64,000 bases of DNA from Eremomyces bilateralis CBS 781.70 (Eukaryota), in assembly GCA_010015585.1 (NCBI GenBank), contig ML975180.1; one strand, given 5' to 3'. Under the pieces are notes generated by a model. The model searched no databases and was not told the origin of the DNA. It saw only the letters and a list, made by a program, of their open reading frames with translations. The translations under genes were made by a program, and so were the position numbers. Positions 4,811 through 47,393 of the stretch are shown here, piece by piece (position 1 is the first letter of the stretch; every line of letters begins with the position of its first letter).

Positions 4811-5873
4811 TTAACTCAGCAAGCTCAGACGGTATCTTCAGATGCTGCACGTGACTATAGTGTGGCAGTGCAGGCAAGGCATCTTATGCAGCAGTGGGAA
4901 CAGCAGTAAGGGTGGATAAGGTCACAAGACGGTCGTGGGCGTAGATTGAGATGGTCACGAGCAACAGACGAGTAATAGACGAGTTAAGGAATATAGATTG
5001 ATGATATTTGTGCCGTAGTACTTCGACTGATTCTTAGGGAAGGAAAAGGAGAATTGTCCAATAAAAAGGTTTGCACAGAGTAGCCCTCGAGTCTGTGGGG
5101 ACTCCCCAAACATCAGAAACAGTAAGCTCACGGCATCGATATGACGATATCCATAACCTGCACATTTGAGGTTTGGGCGACTTGGCAGACGCCCGAACAG
5201 ATCCAGGTTCTGGACGAAGATAAGGTCCCAACTAGTTTACGGAGGATAAGAGACTGATCGCATACTACGGGGATTCCAACGTGCGTGATCGCCGCTACAT
5301 GGATTTCTCCACAATGGCTCCAAATTTCGACGACAATTGGGTGAAACGGCGACCTCGATATATGTCGAAACTTGAACTTCTTCACAATGAGACAAAGAGA
5401 GCGGCCGCAGCCTGTGGTCCATGCAAGTGCCCAATTATGGGCTTGTGGAGAAAGATCACATATGAGCCTGGTTCCACACAGGAAAAGCAAGAATACATAG
5501 CAAGACCACATAATACCGCCGTACTGTAGCGATAAATAATGCGCTAAGAAGGGAAGATGGTAAAGGAAAATAACAGGCATTCCCGTCGACTGACATGTAG
5601 CCTCCTCCAGGAGGGAAGAAATTGATAGCTGTCCAGGTGCTGTCTATTTCGGTTTAGCGCGTCATGAGACATATTTAGTTAACCTCTTCCAGTTTAGCGT
5701 TATTCACGTGCCGTAGTTTCTCCGATCCATGTTCACTAACAAGTACCTTCTGTTTCACGAAATTTACTGTCTTCGATGACTTTGCAACATTTACCCATTA
5801 ACGCTCCTGCCATCTCCATGAGTTTTTCGCGTTCGCGACGTCCACGACGTCCACGGCGTCCACGGCGTCCGCC

Positions 5874-6903
5874 ATGTCTTCTCCATCCTCTCCGATATCC
5901 GATCGTCCCTTGAACTCCTCCAATCCCTCCAATCCGCCCCAAACGTCCACCATGGTGCCAAGAGATCGCTCAGAAGGACGAGATGTCCATGTCTATGATG
6001 CCAATGACTCTACCACCGTACTTGGTGGACTGGTTCTCACAAATGGTGTCACAAATAGCAACTTCTACTCGATGGTGGATATTCTTGTCTTGTTTACAAG
6101 CTGCTTCGAATTGCAACATGAAGAAACCAAAGTTGAGAGAAATGATGACCCGCTTCAGCCCGGGAAGTACTACATTATTGCTGCAGGTGAGTTTATGTCT
6201 AATAAATCTTGTTATAGCTAACCTAGGTGTCATGAGCAGGTCCTTTCTCGGTCAATAATGAGCCGTGGTTACTCCGAACCATATCTCATTCCACTGGAAC
6301 CCGTACCGATTCCTTCCGCAATGCCATCCGTTCGCGAGACCGTCGATGCGTCATATCCGGGCAAAAGGCTGTTGGTGCATATCGTAATAACTGGAGAGGC
6401 TTTGAGGCTGCTCATGTATTCCCCCTGGCCTATGAGGGCGATTGGACTCAGCACGGCTATGATCGCTGGATTACAATTCCACCTGAAAAAGGTGGAACCA
6501 TTAACTCTGTGCAAAATGGGATGTTGCTCAGGACCGACATACACCAGCTATTCGATAGCTATGACCTCTCTATTGACCCTGACGTACGTATGCCTTTCTT
6601 TAAAGAAATACCAGATAATAATTATTTTAGGATAACTACAAGATCGTGTTCTTCTCCGATGATGGGGCGGGTCTCGCGGGAAAGTGTCTTGATCAAGAGT
6701 TTCGTAATAATCCTCAACGACCCGTCGATCCGCTTCTGCGATGGCATTTCAGACAGGCGGTTCTAGCAAATATGAGGGGTGCTGGCGAGCCTCAGTTCGA
6801 GCATGATTTCCCGCCAGGGTCGGACATGGTTGGTGACATTCTTAATGGTCCAAAGGCAGCTGAAAGGATGGAGTTTGAGCTGTTCAATCGCCTAGCAGCC
6901 TAG
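5874..6903 (+). CDS. HNH endonuclease-domain protein (HNH_2-like), 3 exons (~5874-6187, 6240-6583, 6631-6903)
   Basis: Spliced product contains FRNAIRSRDRRCVISG...FEAAHVFPLA...INSVQNGMLLRTDIHQLFD...LLRWHFRQAV; introns GTGAGT..CAG and GTACGT..TAG restore the frame. Confidence 0.85.
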
Positions 6904-13019: not shown

Positions 13020-15190
13020 TAATGAGAAGGGGAAACAAGTCGCAGCGGCGCGGCAAAACGGATACACCACGAGACTGCGTACTATGAATCGATCTAGGCC
13101 GACGACCTAACCCCAGCATCGCGCCCTATCATAGACGCAATCGAGAGGCGAGTTGGCTATGTGTGGAAGAAGTGGATAGAGTGTATTCAAGGCTAGGATT
13201 TCCCAAGTTTTAGACTAACTGTCTATACCTCTAATCAGATACTGTTCGCTCCGAATCCTTGACCCCGACGCTCTTGCCCGCCTGCGAAACATCAGCGTAG
13301 CCGAGATCCGGGGATTCATGCTCTGGTATCTGGACAACCATGCTATGACAAAGCTGAATTCCTTCTATGTGCTGATGCGTTACTGGCGGATGATGTACGC
13401 TCGGAAGTTATACCAAAGGCTTGACCTTGTCATCGCTTCGGATATGAAAGACGTAGGGCTGTGGCTCCCTCTAGAGACTGTCTCTGCAGTATCTTTAACG
13501 TATGGTTAGTTCATCGGCACCGTCATAAAAAGCGAGTACAGCTTGAGTGAAGGTATAAAAAAGAAGCCTGTTATGAACGTAGATGATATATACTTGCTCC
13601 TATTCTCCTACTGCGCGATATCGAACGAGTACTACGCGCACGAGCGGGAAAGAGTTCAACATAGTCTGATTATCCTTTTCATGATCAGCACCTCTACAAG
13701 GCCGTCGACTCTCGTCGAAGGTGGCGGCTACTATAACACAAGCGAATGCCTGAAGTACAAGGATATTGAGATATTCAAGGTCAACGATCCAGAACTCCCC
13801 TCTCAACAAGTCTTTTCTTATAAGAGTCCGGCTTCGGCTTCTCAAGGGCAAAAGAGACAAGGGCCTGCCGTAAGTGTTATGCAACCCCTTTTGAGTTCAC
13901 ATCGGCTAAGGTTATAAAGGATCAAGGTGATGTTTTGTGAGCGAGACGATAATCTTTCTTTTTACGCCATTCTGCAGGTTTTAGGTCTCGCCTTCGTCAA
14001 TAACGCCTTCGACAGCGACTGGATCAAGCAGCCTAAGGACTTCCATACATTTTCGGTCCCATCTCACCAGAAAAGTGTGCAACTACATTAGAAAGAGTTA
14101 ATATATGACATTACGATTCTCCGGCGATCTGTTGTTCGCGGCGGAGAGGTGACCATATTACCGGATAAATCGGTTCAGTATATGAATCTCTATTACCAGA
14201 ACGCGCGACTAGGCATATCTGCTGGCTTTGCAGATACTCTCGGGCTATACAGCTATCGCAGAGGTGCTGGTGAAGTGATTGATTGTAAGCGCACATTCTC
14301 ACTCCTATGTACATTCCTACGCCAGCAATTTTCCTACATCCGCGTGCTTTCTTGGCCTTGTTGGGGCTTCCCTTGCTAACGTCATTTCTAGACGTAGCTG
14401 GTTCAGATATGGGGAGCTTTGTAATGTAATGGACCATGCTCGTACAAGTCTCTTTGAGCGCTATTATCGTAATAGCGTTGTCCAGCTCGACTCGGTATCT
14501 GCGTCCCTCGAAGTGCCTTCCAAAGACGCGCTGATCAAACTGGCTGGGCATATGAGTTTGACCCGGGATCCCTTCGCGGCCGACTTGATTAACGTCGAGA
14601 CCTCCGCAATTGACTGCGATCATGGTATCCAAGAAATCGAGAAGTCGTCGTGCCTTCCGCTTCGGAAAAGCGTCATTGAAACTTTTGGGAAGATTAAGAA
14701 CGGAAGGGGCACGGAGCTCAGCGATACGTCCTAACGCGAGCGAAGCCATTTACGCAGCGAGAGGATCAAGGTGAAATGGGTACTCGAAGTAGAAGTCCGG
14801 TGATAGTATTTCCGAACCACCGGGACTAGGTATATCGATGAACAGCGACGCGGCATCACTCGTGAGTATATCGAGCCGAAACCTGTATTCCAATTCGAGG
14901 AACGGGAGAGACTAGCAGCGCTCCTCTTCTAGAGCCGAGATGTTCGGCAAGTATCTAAGGAAGAGATTTACGAACAGCGCATTGCAGCGATGGGTAACCT
15001 GATCAGCCTATGCGGTCGGCATTTGCCTCGCCCTGCGCCCCGTCGTCATCTCTCGTTGCGAGATAGATCTCTAGAAGAGATCCCCGAGGAGGCGAAAGAT
15101 TTGGACCCCGATCTCTTCCCGTCCGGGCACCCAATGCCTGTTTTGTCTCGGCAGTCAGAGTCTAGGGCCGCAGTCTAGAATATTCGCGCA
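13020..15190 (+). pseudogene. DUF3435 tyrosine recombinase ('captain'), multi-exon, with frameshifts and nonsense codons; 5' boundary approximate
   Basis: KPVMNVDD...HERERVQHSLIILFMISTSTRPSTLVE...LKYKDI; YSYRRGAGEVID; NVMDHARTSLFERYYRN...GHMSLTRDP; C-terminal TQCLFCLG. Confidence 0.85.
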
Positions 15191-15426: not shown

Positions 15427-18400
15427 TCACAAAGTAAGTTCCATGGTCATAACTCTTCCAGATGTATATCCGAAAGCAACAATACCCCCAGAAACAGCAA
15501 TAATGCTTGGCCGATACTCGCGAGGAAGCCAAAGGATCCGCTCGGTATGGCTACTTACCCAGTTGTCATTGACAAAGATAGAAGACGGATATTGTAGACT
15601 GGTTACACCTATACCACCAGAGAGAGGGAGTAAAATAGGCAAGGATCCACGGTCTGTCTGGAGAGAGGTACCATCATCGGAGAAAGAGAGAGCGTAGACG
15701 ATGTCTCCCATATCATGCGTTTGCTGTAGCACGCCCGACCCGACATCCCACAGCTTGACCGTCGCATCGTCCGATGCCGACGCCAGCGTCTTGCCGTCCG
15801 GAGCGAAGGCCACGGCGTAGACCCAGTGCGAATGGCCCTTGAGCGTCTGCTGTAGCGTTCCGGACCCGGCGTCCCATAGCTTGACAGTCCTGTCGTTCGA
15901 TGCCGACGCCAGCGTCTTGCCGTCCGGCGCGAAGGCCACGGCGAGGACCGAGCCCGAATGGCCGTCGAGCGTCTGCTGCAGCGCGCNNNNNNNNNNNNNN
16001 NNNNNNNNNNNNNNNNNNNNNNNNNNNNNNNNNNNNNNNNNNNNNNNNNNNNNNNNNNNNNNNNNNNNNNNNNNNNNNNNNNNNNNNNNNNNNNNNNNNN
16101 NNNNNNNNNNNNNNNNNNNNNNNNNNNNNNNNNNNNNNNNNNNNNAGCGCGCCCGACCTGGGGTCCCACAGCTTGACCGTCCAGTCGTTCGATGCCGACG
16201 CCAGCGTCTTGCCGTCCGGCGCGAAGGCCACGGCGCGGACCGAGCGCGAATGACCCTTAAGCGTCTGCTGAAGCGCGCCCGACCCGGCGTCCCACAGCTT
16301 GACCGTCCCGTCGTTCGATGCCGACGCCAGCATCTTGTCGTCCGGCGCGAAGGCAACGGCGAGGACCGAGCCCGAATGGCCGTCGACCGTCTTCTGCAGC
16401 GCGCCCGACCTGGGGTCCCACAGCTTGACCGTCCAGTCGTTCGATGCTGACGCCAGCGTCTTGTCCGGCGCGAAGGCCACGGCGAGGACCGAGCCCGAAT
16501 GGCCGTCGAGCGTCTGCTGCAGCGCGCCCGACCTGGGGTCCCACAGCTTGATCGTCCNNNNNNNNNNNNNNNNNNNNNNNNNNNNNNNNNNNNNNNNNNN
16601 NNNNNNNNNNNNNNNNNNNNNNNNNNNNNNNNNNNNNNNNNNNNCCGTCCGGCGCGAAGGCCACGGCGAGGACCGAGCCCGAATGGCCGTCGAGCGTCTG
16701 CTGCAGCGCGCCCGACCCCGCATCCCACAGCTTGACCGTCGCATCGTCCGATGCCGACGCCAGCGTCTTGCCGTCCGGCGCGAAGGCCACGGCGTAGACC
16801 CAGCTCAAATGGCCCTTGAGTGTCTGCTGCAGTGCGCCCGACCCGGCATCCCACAGCTTGACCGTCGCGTCCTCCGATACCGACGCCAGCGTCTTGCCGT
16901 CCGGCGTGAAGGCCACGGCGTAGACCCAGCCTAAATGGTCCTCGAGCGTCTGCTGCAGCGCACCCGACCCGGCGTCCCACAGCTTGATCGTCCTGTCGTT
17001 CGATGCCGACGCCAGCATCTTTCCGTCCGGCGCGAAGGCCACGGCACAGACCGATTCCGAATGGCCGTCGAGCGTCTGCTGCAGCGCGCCCGACCCAGCG
17101 TCCCATAGTTTAATCGTCCCGTCGCTCGATGCCGACGCCAGCGTCTTTCCATCCGGCGCGAAGGCCACGGCGCGGACCGAGCGCGAATGGCCCTCGAGCG
17201 TCTGCTGCAGCGCGCCCGACCCGGCGTCCCACAGCTTAACCGTCGCATCGTCCGATGCTGACGCCAGCGTCTTGCCGTCCGGCGTGAAGGCCACGGCGCG
17301 GACCGAGCGCGAATGTCCCTTAAGCGTCTGCTGCAGCGCGCCCGATCCGGCGTCCCATAGATTGACCGTCGCATCGTCCGATGCCGACGCCAGCGTCTTT
17401 CCGTCCGGCGCGAAGGCCACGGCACAGACCGATTCCGAATGGCCGTCGAGCGTCTGCTGTAGCGTGCCGGACCCGGCGTCCCATAGCTTGACCGTCCTGT
17501 CGTTCGATGCCGACGCTAGCGTCTTGCCGTTCGGCGCGAAGGCCACGGCGAGGACCGAGCCCAAATGGCCGTCGAGCGTCTGCTGCAGCGCGCCCGACCC
17601 GGCGTCCCACAGCTTGACCGTTCTATCGCTCGATGCCGACGCCAGCGTCTTTCCGTCCGGCGCGAAGGCCACGGCGTAGACCCAGCCTAAATGGTCCTCG
17701 AGCGTCTGCTGCAGCACACCCGACCCGGCGTCCCACAGCGTGACCGTCCTGTCGTTCGATGCCGACGCCAGTGTCTTTCCGTCCGGCGCGAAGGCCACGG
17801 CGCGGACCGAGTCCGAATGGCCCTCGAGCGTCTTCTGTAGAGCGCCCGACCCGGCGTCCCACAGCTTGACCGTCCTGTCGTTCGATGCCGACGCCAGCGT
17901 CTTTCCGTCCGGCGCGAAGGCCACGGCGTAGACCGAGCCCAAATGGCCCTTGAGTGTCTGCTGCAGCGCGCCCGACCCGGCGTCCCATAGTTTAACCGTC
18001 CCGTCGCTCGATGCCGACGCCAGCGTCTTTCCATCCGGCGTGAAGGCCACGGCGCGGACCGAGCGCGAATGGCCGTCGAGCGTCTGCTGCAGCGCGCCCG
18101 ACCCGGCGTCCCACAGCTTGACCATCCTGTCGTTCGATGCCGACGCCAGCGTCTTTCTGTCCGGCGAGAAGGCCACGGCGTTGACGCGGTCCGAATGGCC
18201 CTCCAGCGTCTGTATTACCGCATGCCATTTCTCCTTAACCCTTGGCGAATTTCGTATCCATCTAGGCATACAGTTTACGAACTGCTGTCTTATTATACTT
18301 ATTGTCGGTGCGAATACGAGGGCACTGCAGTACGTCTGAAGGGGAGCCTGCTCGATAATATGTCGGTTATAGAGCACGAACCGCTTCGCATCATGGATAA

Positions 18401-20217
18401 ATTTCGAGAGACTAGGACAGCCACTTAACTGGCCAAATTGTTAGCGAATACTCTGTAATATGCTGTAGATAGTTATACTAACGGAAGTAAACGACCCCAA
18501 AGATGTGATAGCATAAACTCCTTCCGACACCATTCCCATCCATCCAAGGGCCTCGAGCCAGTGAAGAAGATGTTCCTGTAAGAATTGATGCACTTGACCA
18601 TTATCGTAAAGTCGAGTACCGCTTTTCTGGAGGTGCTGGATCCAGTAAAGACATGCATACTGGACTTCAGGAGGTAAACTTTGTGTAACTCGGCGTCTCT
18701 CGGCATTGGCTACAAGCATGCCGGGGGCATTCACGCAACATATATCTTGCTTGAGTGATAACGACATAAGCTGGATACAGCTGTTGGTTAACACTTGGTG
18801 GGCTTTCTTCTCGTCTACCCATAAGTTTGGATCTCCGCATCTCTTTTCATCGAGGAGAAAGTCGCGAAACGAAGGGTGATGCAGACGAAGTGGATATATG
18901 TCGACCTTGGGAATGTTTAGAATCGCATGAAGATCCCTGAGCACCTGACCAATATTTTGCTTGGGGATATTAAGTAGCCTGTGAAGCGAGCCGGCAGAGA
19001 GCGGGGAGAAGAGCACCACGATGCTTCCAAGAATATGACTTTGCATGCCATACAATGCTTCCTTCTCTTTCGCTAAGTAACCTAACCGGATAGATTTCTT
19101 TAGGACGGTAGTATAGAGCTTATTAAGGTGTACTTCTGGATGCTCTTCTGGTGCAGGAATAGAGGTACTACCTTCTAACAAAGTTTGCACTCTTTCGTCT
19201 GCGAGATAACCTTCTTGAATGAACCGACAAGCGGTTGCGGCCCAAATGAACAATCCCCCTGCAGTCTGGATCAGGCTTTTGATAATCTCTTCGCCTGGCC
19301 AGGAGTCATCTAGAGAGTGCTCCTGTCCAATGAGCTTAAGATTATACTCGAAGAAAACAGAGATATCGTGATCTACGATAGAGGGTGATATGCTGTGAAG
19401 TACAAAATCCTGGATATTCGCATTCGGTAGCTGACGGAATCCATATCGGATTGGAATTTCAGGTCGGCTTGTCAGCAAGACTCGTAGTCGAACCGTCTTT
19501 AACAATCGAGCTTCAGCTAAGAGGTGTATGATAATCCGGATGTTATTGTCACCGTCGCACTCATCGAGCGCATCAACGACAAGAATGTACGAGGACTGGC
19601 CACCGTTTTCACCTAGCTTTAATAGTGGACCTAGGATAAGTTGCTGCCACTGGTCACGGAGGGACTGGCTCGCAATGTCGCGGTGCTCTATGATGGCATC
19701 GCAAATGTACTGTTGGAGAGAGGGTATGTTGTTCGCCAGCTGCCACGCAATGCTCGTGATGAACTTGCCTGCATGGTTGACATCCCCACCGCCGCGCGAG
19801 AAGAAGAAGCTGGCTCCGAGATGCTTCTCATCGAAGCCTCTGCGGGCGACAGTGCGCGCAATTGTCGACTTGCCCGTGCCGGCCAAGCCGTTCAACCAGA
19901 AAATAGAGCGCCCATCTTGCCTGTCAGCCCAGTTGTATATCTCTTGGAGGAGGTCGACGCGGGTATCGGGAAGGCAGGCCGGGTCGTGTTGTCGCTGGTA
20001 TGTATTGAACGGCGCGTCCTTTGCGGTAGGGAGGGAGTTGAGCACATCGTTCAAGTCTAGATTGCCAGTAAGCTTCCTGCTGCTTTGAGGCCATAGCCAG
20101 CTAAGCACCCTCACTTTTGCTGCTCCCAAAGTTCACAGACCCATGGATAGTGCCAGCCACGACCTGCGAATTCTGGTTGGCGGACACACCACTAATAAGT
20201 TGAGTGCTGCCTGACAT
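15427..20217 (-). CDS. NACHT-WD40 NLR (NWD/HET-E-like); exons ~20217-20115, 20056-18483, 18428-15427; two N gaps in the repeats
   Basis: P-loop [14 protein letters not shown], Walker [31 protein letters not shown]; at least 18 near-identical 42-aa WD40 repeats; introns with GT/branch site/AG keep the frame. Confidence 0.93.
15720..18210 (-). repeat. Tandem 126-bp WD40 repeat array with high internal identity
   Basis: Unit [42 protein letters not shown] repeated; assembly gaps fall inside the array. Confidence 0.97.
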
Positions 20218-21380
20218 GAGCTTGGAATAGCGACGCTAATTCGCTCTCTTCTGGCGCATGTTGCTGTGTATGTGGGCATGCGAACACCTGGGAGTGAGTT
20301 CATGTCTGTATGCAGATGAGGTTCATCCTCAATCCTCAACTAGCGAATGCATTCGCAAGGCTCGCCAATCAACACTCCTGCCTTGCCGCTATCCACTGCT
20401 GGAGAGCGGCTGTCGGCTGCAAGGTAGGGCGGACCTAACACCAAGACCATTTGTCGACACTATCAAAGCGAGCATCTTCCATTTCGGCGGCCAACGGGCG
20501 CTGTACCCCCTCCGAACTTGAAGCAATGTCTTATATCACTCAGGTTGACTGTATTTATAATATCAAGCGCGAAAATAGAAATGGAAATGTTATCCACTAT
20601 CTTTCGTCAAAGTAGGAACCCTTGATTGTGGACTGTGGAGTTTCTAGACTGGCCACGGCCGGTAACCCTGCCGCCCTGTCATCCTCTATAATTATCCTTA
20701 TTACTCTCTAAGCCGGCTTGGTTTTGGCACGCGATGCTTATAGACACATTCTTCCGGTCCTCGAATGCCTCGAGGTCGCCGCGGCCGCCCTTTCTGTCCC
20801 TTCTGCTACGGCAGAGGCTAGTTGCAGCTGGGAGCGGAGTCGTGTCGGTCATGCGCGAGCGAGAAGGGGAGAGCGATTGGGTGACAGGGGCCCGTTAGGG
20901 AAAGGTGCAAGGAAAGGCGAGGAGGGCGAAGGAGGTGAAAGGTGGGGACAGTTTAGAGGAAAGAACGAAGATGGAGAAGTCCGAGCTAGGGAAGAGGACA
21001 CCCAAAACCAGAAACGGCAGGTGACCACCCCCGCCACCATGTCGAATATTTTTAAAAAGTCACACCTTGCATCGTCTATCATTCCTTACACTTAGTTAAT
21101 ATCCATGGCTTTTCTGAATCTCAATTCCAATATGTACTTCCCCGACACAATGCGGTGGTGCAGGGCAGCTATAGACCCCCCTCTTGCCTCACCTCAACCG
21201 AGGGTTGTGTGAGAAAATCGTGATAGGGCCAAATTCGAGGCCCCCTGCCCAGCACCACCAAAACCACCATCAAACCACTCATACAGCAAAATATCACTTT
21301 CCAGGCGGTTCACATGTAAATTTGAGGCTGTAGATTTCTATGTAAATAGTAATGTCGCGAGAGTTTCAGGCGTTGAGCTC

Positions 21381-22464
21381 TTAATAACGTGATTGAAGCC
21401 CATTTCGCTCTGCAATCTCTGCCATCCTGTCAGGCATAGATTCGATATAGGAATCGATCTCATGTTGTGGAATCTTGTTCCATTCATCGATGATCGCATC
21501 CTTGAGCTCTCCCTGAGTTTTGGGATGCCGTTTACGCTGTTTTAAGCGCTGTTTTAGGATCCTCCAGACGTTCTCAATTGGGGACATATCTGGAGGTCCG
21601 CATACCAAGGAATCCCCCATTCAGACATGAACTTTTTCACCCTATTAGTCTTGCTCCGGGTTCCGTGGCACCCATCATTTTCAACCTCGAGGAGGAAGGG
21701 CCTCCCTTCCTTCCGAAAACGCTGGAAAAGGGGGACGATATAGGGCTTCAAGATCTCGTCGCGGTAACGGGTCATATTGAGTCCAGATTCGCGACCCCCC
21801 GGCCTCTCCTTTTTGTGGTATTCGTAGAATACGAGGTGGCTCTTATATCCCATCCCTACGGCACCCCAGGCGTGGAGGACATTTTTTGGTCTCTTTTTCC
21901 TATGCTGAATGCAATCAGGGCAATACCGCTCCTCTTTCCCGCGGATTACCCACTTTGAGTTCTCCATACCAAGATGGAAATGGGCCTCATCTGAGAAGAC
22001 AACGTATCGCCAGAGGGGAGTCCAAAGGCGGTGGTCCTGAGCGAATTGGTAGCGCTTGATCCGGTTCTCCTCCTTGATATACGGTTTTTGACAGGCACGG
22101 CACTTCTGGAATCCCTCACGCTCAACGGCTGATTTAAGGGTCTGCCAATGGCATCCGAGCTTCCAAGATCGCACTATCTCCTCAAATGACTCGATTCGCC
22201 GGTCGTAATGACCGACGAGCCACCGGATAATAGCCTGGATCTGTTCAACCAGGAGACTCCGTGGGCGACCTCTTGCGGTCCCGACCCTGCCTTATTAGTT
22301 CGCCTAGAACTCCTAGCTCTTAAGATACGATATCCTGTGGCCGTTGAAACACCACATCGTTTAAAAATATCGTTATTTGAGAGCTCTGGGCAATGCCTCC
22401 GGAGGGTCCGAACTTCCTCCCTTTCTGGGGTTGACCGCACGTGACTTTCGGGCGCTGGGGACAA
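21381..22464 (-). pseudogene. Tc1/mariner (DDE_3) transposase, frameshifted
   Basis: N-terminal HTH (GVSTATGYRIL), VVFSDEAHF, EVENDGCHG, PPDMSPIENVW spread over three frames. Confidence 0.85.
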
Positions 22465-23161
22465 CGATGGTGTCTGGAGCGGTTCGTACGGTGGTGTAGG
22501 CTTTTTGCGCGGGCGTATAAATCTCTCTCTCTCTTAAACCTACGGTAGGTACTAGACACCTCTGCCGTAAACCACAAGCGACCGCACCACCCCACCCATC
22601 GCGTCGCATATCCAGATGAATCTTGATATTTCAACAGAATGGCTCGTTACCGAATCAAACACTGTTCGAAGGGTAGAAGGTATGGATTTCGAACGATTCG
22701 CGGCGCTGCATAACCAACTCCTTGACCTTGCGGGGACAGGACGACCGTTAGAGGACATGGACCATCGGCCTTGGTGGGAGTTTCATCGTTAGGAAGCCGA
22801 AGTTCTCCCCGAAGGACGACTTTCATCCTCCGTCATTCATTTCCTGAAGCGGATTCGCGTCGAAGACGACTCTACATCTACACTGCTTTTCCGTGGCATT
22901 CGCAGTCGACTTGGGGCCTTTGGAGGGTCTTCAGACTTATCGTGATGGAACTTGAGCTCGCTCTTATGCCACCAACTGATTGAAGCTGCAAAATGAAGGG
23001 CATTACCTACCTTTGCGGGTCTGGCTTGGAGGTTTTCAGGCTTAAGTGTAATGGTCTTGCGCCTTTGGCTCAGACGTGGTTGATTGCCTGACGGCCTGGA
23101 GAGGCGCAGGTGGGGTGAGCCACAAGCAACACGTGACTACCTGCATGGCTTCATGCAATGC

Positions 23162-23974
23162 TTACCTCAGGCTCTCAGGCCCTTCAGTGGGACGCAAAGG
23201 CGCTAACCCAAAATGGGTCACCCACACGAAGGGCCTGAGACAAATTTGAAATTTTTTGGTGGCGTTGACGTTCGTGGCATGCAAATTGGTGAGCATTCAG
23301 GTCAACATCATCAGCTTCATGGAATGATTCTACGCGCAATATAGACCAATTCTATCTCAAAAATTTGGAATTCGGAGCTATGGATCCCAGCTATCGACCA
23401 TTCTGCTACACAAACTACCGCGCCCCCCTGATCGCGAGTCCTTGCCTTCGATGTTGGAGGCGGTAACAATGAAGATGGAGCAGATGCGCCATTTTCTGCT
23501 ACAGTCGAAGAAGAAGATCCTTTAGAAACCATATTCAGAGATCGGCTGTCCAAGAGTTCTACGTCAGTTCAGCAAGCATATACGAATCAATAGGCAGAAG
23601 GAACTCACTCTCTTCCGTCCTTAAGGTTCGCTGTTAGTTATTAAATAGTTCTCGCATCTCCAATATCAATGCTGCAACCTACTACTATTACTCAGGTCTC
23701 AGGATTCTTCATGACTACTTAGCCACCTCGCCTAATGAGATCGGGGATTTAGGAATATGTTTGGTTGCCGACTTGGACGCGCTGTTTGGCTTCGTACTTT
23801 GACTTGATGTCGATTTCGAGACGAGTTCGCAGCGGAGCTTGGAGGGGCAATTTGCATGCCACGAACGTCAACGCCACCAAAAAATTTCAAATTTGTCTCA
23901 GGCCCTTCGTGTGGGTGACCCATTTTGGGTTAGCGCCTTTGCGTCCCACTGAAGGGCCTGAGAGCCTGAGGTAA
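23162..23974. mobile_element. Non-autonomous element with perfect 127-bp terminal inverted repeats (23162-23288 / 23848-23974)
   Basis: Arms TTACCTCAGGCTCTCAGG...GCATGCAAATTG are exact reverse complements; 559-bp spacer without a credible ORF. Confidence 0.8.
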
Positions 23975-37416: not shown

Positions 37417-38417
37417 ATGGGCCGATTCGACAGCAAAGGGCAGGATGACGCGAGCGATTCGTCAAGAGGGAAATACAACGATGTCAACATGGACGAGACC
37501 AAACTCCTTAACGGCTCCGACTCGGATGTGGAGTATCCGGTCCAGCAGATCTTGGAGTTAAACCGATCCTTGCGGCGAACGAAGTTCCTGTTGCGACTTG
37601 TGGTGGGAACCATCGGAGTCTCCATCCTTCTCTTCATTATCGTCGTCTCGGTCGCCGGGGCAAAGAGGGATGAAATTTTGAAGTTGATCGGGGGAAAGCG
37701 GCCGGATAGGATAATGAAGTCTCCGGTTCCGCCTCGTAGGTCGTCAAGAAGACTCGCTGGAGGCTAAGCTGACGTGGACGCAGTGCCTCTTGAAACGGTC
37801 ACCTTTGTGGAAGAGAAAATATATGGGATGAAGTCGACCCCGGAATCGGACGAGGCCTGGAACAGATTACTTCCGGCACGTCTCACATACCAAAAATCAT
37901 GGATCTCGTGCTGACCATTCATCAGGATGGTCGAGGTTTCGTCTACATCCCCGACTGGGAAGACTACGATCTTCCGCCCGGCCAAGACACCCCTTGGGGC
38001 GTGATTTACAGCACGGCACTCTACCATCAGATCCACTGTCTCGGGCAGATTCGAAAGTACGCGTGGATGATGGTGGACGGAATTTCGTCGGACGATCCCG
38101 CCAAGCTCCAAGCCGTGAAGGAGCACGTCACCGGGAAGGACCATCCAGACCACTTGTACCATTGCTTCGATTACCTGCGCCAGAGTCTGATGTGCTGCGG
38201 AGACATGGCAATGGAATGGCCTCGAACTGAGGAGACCGGTGAGCGATATGTCGTGGATGGATGGAACATTCCGCACGAGTGCAAGAGCAGAGTAAGTCCG
38301 GCCCAGGTGATCGCTTCTTGCAGCTGCTGACATCGATACTAGAATGGAATCGAAGAGTATATGAGAAAGGCTCATTTCAACCACTCGCAGATGGATGAGA
38401 TTGCCCCCCACAGATGA
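37417..38417 (+). CDS. DUF3328 (UstYa-like) oxidase, 4 exons
   Basis: N-terminal TM helix; SDEAWNRLLP; twin HxxHC motifs YHQIHCL and HLYHCFDYLRQSLMC; DGWNIPHECK. Confidence 0.92.
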
Positions 38418-38492
38418 ATATTGTCTTGAACACCGCCCTCTGTTCCATCAATGGAAATATAGCATAGTATTTATGAAAATGTACGCTAGTGT

Positions 38493-39525
38493 TTACGATC
38501 TGAATATCCGCTCGAAGCCCTTCTCGTCTGGCTGAAGCCAGTTGCACTTGTCGTAGTCGTTTTGACCCTCGATGAGGTGGAACGTGTAGATGAACCGGCT
38601 TTTTGCGCTCGTATTCCTCTCGCTCTTGTGCAGGAGGTTCCCATGGATCAGCACCAAGGTGCCCGCTTTCACCTCCCCCACCGTGTACTCTTCGGTGCTT
38701 CCAACAGCGGCATTGCTGTCCAACCCAAGCCCTTCCGGGAACCTCTCACCCTCGTTCGCCGTAAACCCCGTCCCCGCCTTCCCTTCCTCGACCTCCCCCA
38801 TCCGCACGAATCGCTTCTCCACCGCCGCCCGCTTGTGGCTACCGCTGGCAAAGCTCAAGCACCCGTTCCCAGCGACGGCATCCTCCAGCGCATACCAAAA
38901 CCCAACCGCGCTGGGAGGGTCGGTGTACAAAAAGGTCGAGTCCTGGTGCGGGGGGACGGCGCCGCCGATACGCGGCTGTTTGCAGATCACCATACTCTGG
39001 AGGCACCGCGGGTCGCGAAACGACAGACTTTTCGCAATCGCCGCATTTTCGGGCGACAGCGTGATACGGCGGAAGGGCTCTGAGAGGACGTGGAGCGCAT
39101 GGCCGATCTTGTTGATCGACGCCGGGACGGGGCCGAGCAGTTCGCCCGACGGGGAGAAAGCGTCTTGAGCAGATCAGCGTCCGTCTGTACGCTCCGAGGG
39201 AGAACTACGAACCCTCTTCGAAGAAGAACCGGATCTTGTCACCGCTGGTTAGAAAGTAGTCGTCGCCCACATGGTCGGCGTCGCCTTCGCCAGTGGAGAA
39301 CTTCGTGCCGGGATGATCTTTGAGTCCGGTTGTGCTAAACTCATCTAGCATTTCCTGTGTCTCGGAAAGAAGCTCATGGACAGTCTCCCCGGATAACGCA
39401 CCGGGGATGATTAGGTATCCATTCTTGTCCCAAAAAGCCAACTGCTCTTGTGATAAGCCGTCGGACAGCGAGCCATGATTCCCACTCGAGAGCGAGCCAG
39501 TTACGGAGGGAGTAACTGCCGCCAT
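38493..39525 (-). CDS. Phytanoyl-CoA dioxygenase family (PhyH/PHYHD1-like), 2 exons
   Basis: FWDKNGYLII, SGDKIRFFFEE, INKIGHALH, PPHQDSTFL, HGNLLHKS. Confidence 0.93.
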
Positions 39526-42605: not shown

Positions 42606-43523
42606 TTGGCTGAATATACAGAAGAGGCTCTACAAAGTACTCTAGATGATTGTCGGACCTGGAAAATCCCCTCCTTGCGCAAGGTTTCGGAGCAATATCA
42701 AATCCCAAGGTCTACTCTAGACTCGCAGGCCGTCCAACTCGCAAAGAGAGCGCCCAGAATACACAGAAACTATCCCCTGTCCAGGAAAGATACCTTACGG
42801 AATGGATTGTCGAAGAAGACCGCGCCAATGGAGCCCTTTCTCACGCAAGAGTGGTCCAAATGGCAGAATGCATTGCCCGGGAAAATTGCGATACGACCCC
42901 TTGCGGTCAACATTGGACTCAAGGCTTCCTTCGTCGTAACCCGCAGGTGAACTCTATAGTTGGAACGGCACTCGAAGCGCCTCGAGCAAATGGCGCAACA
43001 AAAGAGGTCATCTCGGAATTCCTGGACCTATACAAGAAGATCTGCGACCAGTACAAGATCAAACCCGCGGGCCGCGAAAAGGTGGAATTTCGATGAACAC
43101 GGCATAATTCTTGGCGTAGGAATGAATGGGAGAGTTATAAGGACCTCAACGAACGGAAAACGTAAACGTACGTACGTTAAGGTCCCTGGTGATCGCGAAT
43201 GGGTTTCCATCATCGAAGCAGTTTCCGCAGAAGGTCGAAAAGTCTCCCCCCTTATCATCTTCAAAGGCCAAAACCTCCAGACTACCTGGTTCCCTTCTTC
43301 AACCAAGGGCCTGACCGATTGGCACTTTACGACATCAGAGAATGCGTGGACTTCTAACGAGATTGGTCTTAAATGGCTGGAGAAGAAATTCCTCCCTGAA
43401 ACCAGTCCTGACAGTAACGGACACGATGAGTGGCGTTTATTAGTAGGCGATGGCCACGGATCTTATGCTACCATTGAGATGATGAAGGCCTGTAAAGATA
43501 CAGACGAAGAGTTTGATATATAG
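42606..43523 (+). pseudogene. pogo/Fot1 (DDE_1) transposase, frameshifted and 3'-truncated
   Basis: HTH SLRKVSEQYQIPRSTL, CENPB-type LSPVQERYLTEWI...WTQGFLRRNP, WNFDEHG, REWVSIIEAVSA, PLIIFKG, AWTSNEIG, LVGDGHGSY. Confidence 0.88.
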
Positions 43524-44942: not shown

Positions 44943-47393
44943 TAGGGCACGCCGTCCTCATAAAGTCTTCATGAAATCTAACCCGATTTAGCTCTAGCGC
45001 TCATAAATGCCCTCATTAATACTAGCCTAATTAGGTATAGCATTACCCAAATATTAGTGCCTGAGGCACCCGCAGCAGTATTTGCAGGAGATCCTAATAC
45101 CCGTTCTCATAGCTCTCTCCAACTGTATAAGTCTTGTAATCGACATCTTCATCACTCAAATGACCAAACCATAACAGTAATGGACGTGTATGTACATTAG
45201 GGCTCGCCGTCCTTATAAATACTAGCCAACTTGGTTCCTACCTTCAACTGCTTTTCTTTGTTAACGTATTTGAAGCTTTAATCCTAAAGATATTGATTCT
45301 TTTCGTGTTTACAATAGCATAGGATTATCTACATGATCTTCTCCCGCCTCAATAAGGCCATCTTCAAGCTCAATATACTCCTCCTCTAAGTCCTCCGCTG
45401 CATTTTCAATCTCGCTAGCATGGTCTCTTCCCTTCCTATCAAATACTCTCTGATTGATATACACGAATTGTAGCATATCAACATTCGTACCCTCAAGGCA
45501 TGAACGGAGCTTGTTCTGTAATAGTTTGAGTATAGAGAAGGAGCGCTCACAGGGCACTGAATTGCAAGGAGTTGATGCCAGTCTCAATGCAATAGGTCCA
45601 ACTGCTGGGGCGAATGTGGACGCAATCTGCCAGAAAGTCTTAATCGTCTCTTTATGCTCCCATATAAAGTGTCCCATATTGAATCGTCCTTCACGCCCCC
45701 GAAACTCAATGATCTGAGTTATAGCATTCTTATAATCCACCCCCATCCTCTTTAAGAAGTTATTAAGCTTCTCCCAAACCTGTGCGGCTGTATGGAATGG
45801 TATTGAGTCGTCGCCGATCGTATGTGGGTTAAGAAGGAACGCAGCAATATGAATATCTGTCGTTTGACGTTCAAATCGAGACTGCAGGAGTTGTGGGATC
45901 TTTGAGAGGTCATCGATATCAGGACGTTCTTGAACGATATTGGCTAAGTGCTGTTGAGCTTGCTTCCAGCTAGTCACGACGTGGTGAAGCTTTGCAGAGT
46001 CCGATTCTGACTGCTTAATAAGGCTATCGATCGGTTCCAAAATGTGGAGGATGAATTCGATGTCAATCCAGAATTGTCGATCCCAGACTACCGCCTTAAG
46101 CTCGTTTACCGAATCGCCTACCTCGTCTGGTAGGCTGTTGAAGTACAGTAATAAGGCCGGTTGTGCTCGCTTGACAGACTTGAGCATTGATACTTGAGTA
46201 CCCCATCTAGTAATAACAGATAAGGTAAAGGAGTATACCTTCTGCATTGTACTTTGCATATGCTCTCGGAGGATACCTAGTTGCTTTGGAGAGGAGGTAA
46301 ATGCCGTAACAATAGCCTGTGCTTTTTGGAACCGTTCTTCGAACCACGGGAGTAACACAATGTCTTTAATAAGGAGCTGCAAGCCGTGGCTATTGCACGG
46401 TACAAAGAATACGTGTCGAAGCTCCGGTTGCTTGCTGAGTATCGTCGCCGCTTTAAGCTGTGTAGCACAGGTGTCTGTTGTAACCGAATTGATCCGTGTG
46501 AAGTTGCCATTGCATAGTTCCTTCATGCACTTGTATAGCCACCCCGCGCTCCATTCGCCATTTAAGGTTTCGCCGGCGAGGATCTCGGATTTGATATATA
46601 AGGCGCCGTACTCTGGCACGTTGACACAGAGATTCTGGACTCGTTTCTTGCGTATGTTGTTCGACTCATCAGCAATAAGGTTGATTGTGGAGGAGCTCTG
46701 AATAATAGGCATAACTTGCTTCCGGCAACGTTCGTAGAGTTCTACTTAATTAGTGGCTGGGAGAAATAAAAGAGTACTTAAACTAACCTGGTAGAAAGTC
46801 GTTGACGATATCCTTCCGTGTAGGAGGCTTGACAAGAGGATAGAACGTGCGATAGATACGCGCGAGGTGCTTCTTCTCCTCAAAAGCATCAAGCGGTAAG
46901 GCATCCATTATGACAGCCATTGTCATATCCAACTGGATAGTCCTCATTTGTAGCGCAGAGAGCGACGGCACCCTAAGTTTCGGCTGGATTGACGTCTGTA
47001 ATTTCCCATTAAGCGTAAGGTATGGCTTGCAGCGTGTGAGGTGTGTCCGGAGGTCGGTGGTTTGCCAGGATCGTTCTGTCTTACACGCCTTACAGATAGC
47101 TCTATCTGTAGCGTAATCAAGGTGTTTTATTCGTATAAAGGAATTGAGTATTTCTACATCGGGGATGCGCCCTTTGGGGGGCATCTTAGTACGCAATTGT
47201 TCAAGCAATGGGCGTGTATATACTCTGTACATAGCCTCAATCTTCAATTCTTCATAAAATAGGCACGTTACATGACTCAGTATGATGACTCAGCATGATT
47301 AATCAGCAACGCACGAGCCCATTACTGCCACCTTTTATGAGATTCCTCTGTAATTCATCATTTAATCCAGATGAGCTCATTTGGACTGCCCTA
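44943..47393 (-). mobile_element. hAT DNA transposon with perfect 8-bp TSD
   Basis: TTCCCAGC at 44935-44942 and 47394-47401; ends TAGGGCA... / ...TGCCCTA. Confidence 0.92.
45309..47184 (-). CDS. hAT transposase (DUF659-type), apparently intact, one intron at ~46786-46742
   Basis: Zn finger CKAC...HLTRC; IADESNN, TTDTCAT, PCNSHGLQL, ITRWGT, CNSVPCERSFS; splicing gives in-frame FLP-ELYERCRKQVMP. Confidence 0.9.

Follow-up and report, generated by a model that had tools for sequence, protein, structure and literature searches.

An unannotated first exon gives a NACHT–WD40 receptor of Eremomyces bilateralis an N-terminal motif of the HRAM amyloid superfamily

Here we describe a NOD-like receptor (NLR) gene on contig ML975180.1 of Eremomyces bilateralis CBS 781.70 (assembly GCA_010015585.1). 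The gene lies on the minus strand of a 64,000-nucleotide stretch, the whole of which was analysed and is hereafter called the window. An unannotated first exon is spliced in frame to the NACHT–WD40 receptor, and it encodes one 21-residue unit of the HET-s-related amyloid motif (HRAM) superfamily. The unit is termed r0 on the receptor side, and the paired repeats of the effector side are termed r1 and r2. The gene is composed of the following parts.

20115..20217, minus strand: exon 1, 103 nt, 34 codons plus one base (protein P0001); begins at the first ATG after an in-frame stop, the start also used in the annotated paralogues P0002 and P0003
20146..20208, minus strand: HRAM r0 unit, 21 residues (residues 4-24 of the protein), with Q at motif position 3, Gly at position 19 and no charged residue
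20057..20114, minus strand: intron 1, 58 nt, GT..AG, phase 1; joint seen in a contig of run X1, intron position kept in the metagenome relatives L001 and L003
18483..20056, minus strand: exon 2, NPHP3_N/NACHT nucleotide-binding domain (Pfam) and the helical region beyond it
18429..18482, minus strand: intron 2, 54 nt, GT..AG; X1 contig joint from 18428 to 18483, with 82 letters on its shorter side
15427..18428, minus strand: exon 3, array of 126-nt (42-residue) WD40 repeats (Pfam WD40, repeat table and list of open reading frames)

The first exon and its splice junctions

A first-pass annotation, made from the sequence alone, had proposed that an ATG at 20217 with an in-frame stop upstream opens a short exon, which a 58-bp intron (20114-20057) fuses to the NACHT domain. 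The sequence, a joint in X1, the paralogues and the metagenome relatives all confirm this model. The in-frame stop lies six codons 5' of the ATG, and intron 1 has the donor GTGAGG and a CTTAC 12 nt before the acceptor TAG. The open reading frame (ORF) of exon 2 matches NPHP3_N (E=1.2e-30) and NACHT (E=1.7e-8) in Pfam, and the next ORF downstream is the WD40 array. Alternative in-frame GT..AG pairs are present; the 58-nt intron is preferred because the X1 joint, the junction in P0002 and P0003, and the exon length in L001 and L003 all agree on it.

X1 is a public run, classed as RNA by software guess, the contigs of which were aligned to 18300-20700. It is the sole public run that matches (no run is listed as definite RNA) and, of the words sampled from 19700-20500, it contains 82%. 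In one contig 20056 is joined to 20115, with 58 letters skipped and the ends CT..AC on the plus strand, and the match extends to 20302 with zero differences; the shorter side of this joint measures 27 letters, below the 31-letter rule of the aligner. A second contig joins 18428 to 18483 (54 letters skipped, CT..AC). These spliced contigs are present at high depth, and the two exact GT..AG deletions are most simply, and probably, explained by X1 being complementary DNA. Two X1 contigs also share loose letters that correspond to 22 or more nucleotides inserted between 20239 and 20243, within the 5' leader; this insertion probably represents the transcript of a paralogue or an allele.

A word search with a 40-residue query identified P0002 (669 residues) and P0003 (590 residues, partial), both annotated in E. 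bilateralis CBS 781.70, with the same N-terminal peptide and the same residues after the junction. The homologous exon 1 of L001 and L003 is also 103 nt long and is followed by the donor GTGAGT, a 69-nt intron and a CTGAC branch site. After removal of both introns, the frame that starts at the ATG extends uninterrupted through 1153 codons, as far as the first run of N, and includes 13 WD40 units at exact 42-residue spacing. At the DNA level the array comprises at least 18 units of 126 nt, with 66-89% identity to the reference copy. The array is interrupted by two runs of N (16558-16644 and 15987-16145), across each of which the frame changes; these runs may stand for assembly gaps within near-identical repeats, in which case their lengths would be estimates.

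The 21-residue motif

Daskalov 2015 (PMC4518210) defines the HRAM by an invariant Gly19 in the third beta-arch and by hydrophobic residues at positions 5, 8, 10, 16 and 18. The classes are told apart there by position 3, which is N in HRAM1, Q in HRAM2 and the supergroup with HRAM5, and H in HRAM3. G22 of the protein falls at motif position 19, Q6 at position 3, and I8, V11, A13, V19 and A21 at positions 5, 8, 10, 16 and 18, respectively. The gap-free register against the HET-s repeat drawn in the first-pass annotation is thus the published HRAM register, and the peptide belongs to the HRAM superfamily. It is also of the r0 type, because it occurs as a single N-terminal copy with zero charged residues and four Ser, Walker A following about 70 residues farther on; published r0 motifs have few charged residues and more S and H than r1 and r2 (section 7 of PMC4518210).

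Conservation was examined in 27 motif rows, a redundant set that includes close paralogues. Among the rows with a residue at the position, Q3 is found in 25 of 25, I or V at position 5 in 25 of 25, and V, L or I at position 8 in 26 of 26. Position 10 is A in 26 of 27 (M in one), position 16 is V, L or I in 25 of 27, position 18 is A, T or V in 27 of 27, and G19 is kept in 24 of 27.

The motif had been described as HET-s-like, and this holds for its HRAM register and its r0 likeness but not for the canonical HET-s/NWD2 subfamily, HRAM1: position 3 is Q, not N, and no HET-s prion-domain match was found in Pfam. Neither was a sigma motif matched at E<=10 in Pfam, which presumably contains the NACHT sigma model. 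The HRAM5 sub-motifs QxFG (repeat positions 1-4) and QG(QI) (positions 16-18), as given in the HELLF preprint, read QxIS and AG(TI) in our peptide. The PP core, described in PMC9815663 as G-hydrophobic-Q-hydrophobic-G, is absent from it. Scored against these fungal amyloid-motif families, the peptide therefore has the HRAM features and a likeness to HRAM2 r0, and lacks the features of PP, sigma, HRAM1 and HRAM5.

The likeness to HRAM2 comes from supplementary file 2 of PMC4518210, which pairs the r0 of an NLR with the r1/r2 repeats of an adjacent HeLo-related protein. Four of its rows have an r0 of our type (Cadsp1_474010, Cadsp1_662565, Coclu2_33136 and Pengl1_430165; two from Cadophora, one from Curvularia lunata and one from Penicillium). 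These are likewise 21-residue N-terminal NLR motifs with Q at position 3, and they have in common with ours the ISG.SA core, S at 14, AG at 18-19 and a short aromatic tail. In three published r0 counted by eye, 10-12 of 21 residues are identical to our motif (10/21 for Cadophora). The file contains exactly two Cadophora rows, and in Table 1 of the same paper Cadophora is entered with two motifs, both HRAM2. Because the Cadophora r0 rows are like ours and Cadophora is listed with HRAM2 alone, we place the motif in HRAM2; this placement is indirect, made through Q at position 3 together with those rows and that table. Eremomyces itself is not in supplementary file 2.

Relatives and paralogues

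For the NACHT part, 120 NWD-type homologues were listed, many with short N-termini. By eye, five of these carry the same motif: P0004 (E. bilateralis), P0010 (Sarcosagium campestre), P0044 and P0069 (both Agyrium rufum) and, more weakly, P0006. A HET-s-like pattern, its third residue being H or N, is seen in another 14, a PP-like pattern in about 11, and long domains in the remainder. Seven receptor-side motif instances were combined into a profile (A1), which returned 21 matches at E<=0.001 from 1.84 billion representatives. Fifteen of them are NLR first exons or N-termini, one being Alternaria tenuissima RYN71680.1, and five are long repetitive proteins, read from their first 200 residues only as compositional noise. 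Across Dothideomycetes, Lecanoromycetes and environmental sequences, each of the seven positions of the HRAM register is conserved.

At least four E. bilateralis NLRs carry this motif class. Identity to the window protein is 91% for P0003, 77-84% for P0002 and 68-72% for P0004. Residues 1-33 are identical in P0002 (33/33, compared with 84% elsewhere; Fisher p=0.009), and the N-terminus of P0004 is half changed (16/32 identical, compared with 72% elsewhere; p=0.015). As far as these small tests go, an N-terminal tag that either stays fixed or is exchanged whole would be in keeping with discrete signalling specificities. P0004 (1519 residues), the fourth paralogue, has a second r0 type that is nearer to the Agyrium rufum motifs than to that of this gene, and E. 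bilateralis may hold two HRAM2 specificities. In P0131 (103 residues, from a 1721-bp contig), one ORF runs without a break from a start that by eye is HET-domain-like into an r0 exon belonging to this family; no HET match was found for it in Pfam at E<=1, and it could be a fragment of a HET gene directly 5' of an r0-NLR, or a fusion.

The missing effector

No second copy of the motif is present in any frame of the 64 kb: the A1 profile scores exon 1 at 68.6 bits and the next ORF at 9.1, and a 21-residue profile scores them at 42.1 and 6.9 bits. Pfam found no HeLo, HeLo-like, SesA, PNP_UDP or patatin domain in 119 of the 128 ORFs that reach 110 codons in the window (the nine left out overlap the NLR), and none of these five domain types among 137 ORFs with 45 codons or more from the segments 11.0-15.5 kb and 20.1-26.8 kb. 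The earlier statement that no effector lies nearby is hence borne out for 64 kb, within which no HeLo or HeLo-like partner with a C-terminal pair of motif copies was found. A Lipase_3 gene at 24.7-25.7 kb was considered as a SesB-like effector and rejected, as it carries no motif copy.

The same arrangement was seen in metagenome relatives. Nineteen loci were fetched with P0126; 15 match only the part beyond the motif, and four (L001, L002, L003 and L011) contain the r0 exon. These four contain no other motif copy at E<=1; their flanks reach 10 kb to either side in L001 and L011, and 4.7 and 10 kb in L002, and L003 is a short locus. Pfam likewise found no HeLo-type domain near the r0-NLRs of L001, L002 and L011 (51 of the 96 ORFs that have 100 codons or more, leaving out ORFs over the NLR); the NLR neighbours in L001 and L002 are an S-adenosylmethionine synthetase and a JmjC protein. 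Because motif copies are absent near the r0 exons of the metagenome loci as well as in the window, a solo position of the receptor seems usual for this clade. Unlinked partners are not new and have already been discussed in print: 98 of 155 HRAM effectors have an adjacent NLR (PMC4518210), and control of one effector by many NLRs has been proposed to relieve the need for linkage (PMC9815663, sections 24 and 45).

At the level of the family, one effector-type protein was found, in addition to the published pairs. P0140 (166 residues, from a 5.3-kb contig; A1 profile E=3.1e-5) has a helical region followed by two C-terminal motif copies at residues 109-127 and 138-161, a layout that, judged from its sequence, is that of the effector side of HET-S-type proteins. 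Searched against 2335 six-frame ORFs, a profile of the two P0140 copies alone finds exon 1 (E=2.7e-5, 21.3 bits), and the second-best ORF scores 5.8 bits. The match between receptor and effector motifs thus holds both ways. The effector repeats and tails in the four rows of supplementary file 2 are closely like those of P0140. Nothing useful was found for P0140 in Pfam.

Comparison with known systems

The published HRAM2 pairs differ from our locus in that their NLR adjoins a HeLo-related protein with r1/r2. NWD2/HET-S of Podospora anserina (HRAM1) has the same r0-NACHT-WD40 layout and the same presumed templating of the prion-forming domain of a pore former (PMC4344463 and PMC4518210); it has N at position 3 and adjacent nwd2 and het-S genes, whereas our motif has Q and no partner lies next to it. 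FNT1/HELLF of P. anserina (HRAM5, PDB 6eka) shares with ours Q at the first conserved position and the 21-residue spacing, but its sub-motifs are not in our peptide, fnt1 and hellf are adjacent, and P0140 matches HELLF at E=0.57.

A precedent for signalling in trans is provided by NLR12 (HRAM3-like)/PNP_UDP (Wojciechowski et al. 2022, PMC9815663): receptor and effector are mostly unlinked and there are several NLR copies per effector copy. This system belongs to another HRAM subfamily than ours, and its effector is enzymatic with a single motif copy. The same source lists an unassigned motif, NLR34, with 29 NLRs in Table 1 and 25 supplement rows, mostly from Fusarium, at positions 5-32; its geometry, compared by positions only, is similar to ours, and no link is claimed. 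Three 6-residue strings of our motif and the name Eremomyces were not found in the supplements of PMC9815663 other than files 9 and 10.

A decayed Starship recombinase next to the receptor

Two remnants of mobile elements flank the NLR.

13510..14731, plus strand: decayed DUF3435 gene (tyrosine recombinase, the 'captain' of Starship elements), in four pieces that match Pfam profile positions 3-64, 95-144, 148-210 and 221-319
21384..22533, minus strand: Tc1/mariner-type transposase remnant (HTH_Tnp_Tc3_2, E=2.8e-9; weak DDE_3), 1.2 kb upstream of the NLR start

About 0.7 kb separates the end of the DUF3435 gene from the NLR stop codon; the gene is on the opposite strand and converges on the 3' end of the NLR. 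It is a pseudogene, with in-frame stops at 13915-13917 and 14089-14091 within conserved profile positions and one frame change; profile positions past 319 of 418 were not found. Captains of Starship elements read into the element, and because of this orientation the NLR would be the first cargo gene. No Rfam match, 5S included, was found anywhere in the window, and neither a target site nor an element end was detected; 11-28 kb contains chance-sized repeats and no convincing terminal repeats.

DUF3435 recombinases are found at the 5' end of Starships and NLRs among their conserved cargo, according to Gluck-Thaler et al. 2022 (10.1101/2021.12.13.472469); an NLR and DUF3435 occur together here as well, with the difference that our recombinase is decayed. 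The words 'amyloid' and 'HET-s' have 0 occurrences each in that paper, and the accessible portions of the literature that uses both words draw no link between Starship and amyloid. The sole evidence for mobility of the gene is the adjoining decayed DUF3435 gene, and what follows from mobility is conditional on the Starship link.

Interpretation

Taking together the observed exon, splice, motif membership, paralogues and absence of a partner in 64 kb, we favour, with a probability of about 0.7, an NWD2-like NLR (HRAM2 r0, NACHT ATPase and WD40 sensor array) whose HeLo-like effector is not adjacent but lies elsewhere in the genome and is shared with the paralogues. By analogy with NWD2/HET-S and FNT1/HELLF, binding of a ligand to the WD40 array would lead to oligomerisation of the NACHT domain, which would gather several r0 segments and allow them to stack into a HET-s-type beta-solenoid. 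This r0 nucleus would act as the template for r1 and r2, the C-terminal pair of motifs in a HeLo-like pore former, and the pore former would then kill the cell. Most probably, one HRAM2 effector encoded elsewhere in the genome serves this receptor as well as P0002, P0003 and P0004, whose r0 is either identical in type or related. We infer, and have not observed, that the motif forms amyloid, that this genome encodes the effector and that the output is cell death.

Several observations weigh against this interpretation. No motif-bearing effector of this organism was found in the window or by the word search with the 40-residue query, which gave, among 8 candidates, only the two NLR paralogues. 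P0140 is without relatives in the word search (which returned only itself) and in the metagenome scan; its match to HELLF, the best in the PDB and spanning both repeats of the prion domain 6eka, is not significant alone, and its nearest PF17111 (HeLo-like) clusters in the protein Atlas score 0.86 and 0.85, values rated as a lead only. The motif itself has no amyloid-motif family in Pfam at E<=10, the sole match being HpuA (E=0.056). Its profile finds no HET-s or HELLF in the PDB at E<=10, where the matches are phage appendage proteins (E 0.3-0.6) that we attribute to chance. Alignment by hhalign to the N-termini of sister NLRs, in groups made by eye, is not significant (P=0.19 for HRAM1/3-like and P=0.13 for PP-like), and HRAM5 has Q at position 3 like HRAM2, to which the motif is assigned indirectly. 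Intactness of the WD40 array cannot be followed across the two runs of N in its 3' part, and the identical r0 of P0002 could reflect gene conversion instead of selection.

Among the alternatives, the one that survives best is that the motif is a genuine HRAM2 r0 whose matching effector was lost, or which a now-dead Starship has moved apart from that effector, leaving a receptor that cannot signal and is drifting to decay. The absence of an r1/r2 copy and of a HeLo-type domain in 64 kb, the pseudogene state of the adjoining recombinase, the transposon remnants upstream and the WD40 frame that is not traceable across the runs of N would all suit such an orphan. Against this stand the open frame of 1153 codons with spliced contigs at high depth, an r0 that is identical in a paralogue, P0002, differing at 16% of other sites, and the at least four NLRs of the species with this motif class. 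The r0-NLRs of the metagenome, likewise without an effector within up to 10 kb, further argue that a solo position is usual for the clade, and we consider loss of the partner unlikely.

Less probable still is that the motif addresses an effector of another kind, for example an enzyme with a single C-terminal copy as in NLR12/PNP_UDP, or that it only aids self-assembly of the NLR. HRAM variants do pair with PNP_UDP, often unlinked and with more copies on the NLR side than on the effector side (PMC9815663, sections 24 and 45), and sister NLRs carry PNP_UDP, HET or SesA domains directly attached (precomputed Pfam lists), but P0140 has two repeats after a helical region. A low-complexity leader with an HRAM likeness by chance, already disfavoured, is scarcely credible: the peptide is short, rich in S, G, N and Q and without a curated profile match, and its profile, with five of 21 library matches being long repetitive proteins, attracts such composition, but the seven register positions are conserved across fungal classes and environmental sequences, the effector-side repeats match both ways, identity to published r0 is close and the intron position is conserved.

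The earlier interpretation, a HET-s-like amyloid signalling motif on a receptor whose partner may lie elsewhere or may have been lost, is supported, and refined to HRAM2 r0; the outcome is an annotation correction and a well-supported family assignment, not a new mechanism. From a Dothideomycete that has been little studied, the HRAM2 family gains an amyloid-signalling NLR missing from the annotation, together with three or more paralogues, in a clade whose receptors are usually placed away from their effector. If the Starship link held, the locus would connect amyloid signalling in fungal immunity with giant-transposon cargo and would offer a concrete test of a receptor working with a resident effector through the tag alone. 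A tentative extension, which we regard as doubtful, is that the receptor is a sensor-only mobile module: a Starship would have taken the r0-NACHT-WD40 gene without the effector, for use by any recipient that has an HRAM2 HeLo-like protein. Such a mobile receptor would be usable at once in a new genome, because coupling needs only a 21-residue amyloid tag. Amyloid templating would then act as a plug for the spread of new recognition specificities between genomes by giant transposons, and a sensor-only module would explain why the r0 class is usually unlinked and multi-copy.

Other features of the window

A perfect 127-nt inverted repeat (23162-23288 and 23848-23974, with 559 nt between the arms) forms an 813-bp foldback that resembles a miniature inverted-repeat transposable element; its arms translate to a Gly-rich stretch with weak Gp38_N matches. 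Transposase remnants are also present at 42960-43520 (plus strand) and 45312-46745 (minus strand), with DDE_1, and hAT with DUF659, both within a stretch of lower G+C content (0.43-0.46) at 43-46 kb. At 5802-6763 (plus strand), an ORF that matches DUF7881 (E=8.6e-33) lies next to one with an HNH_2 endonuclease domain (E=1.5e-17), and the two are probably one gene. UstYa proteins occur in fungal ribosomal-peptide pathways, and for this reason an ORF of the UstYa family (plus strand, E=3.4e-19) that adjoins a PhyH dioxygenase ORF (minus strand, E=3.1e-34) at 37794-39173 may form with it a small biosynthetic pair.

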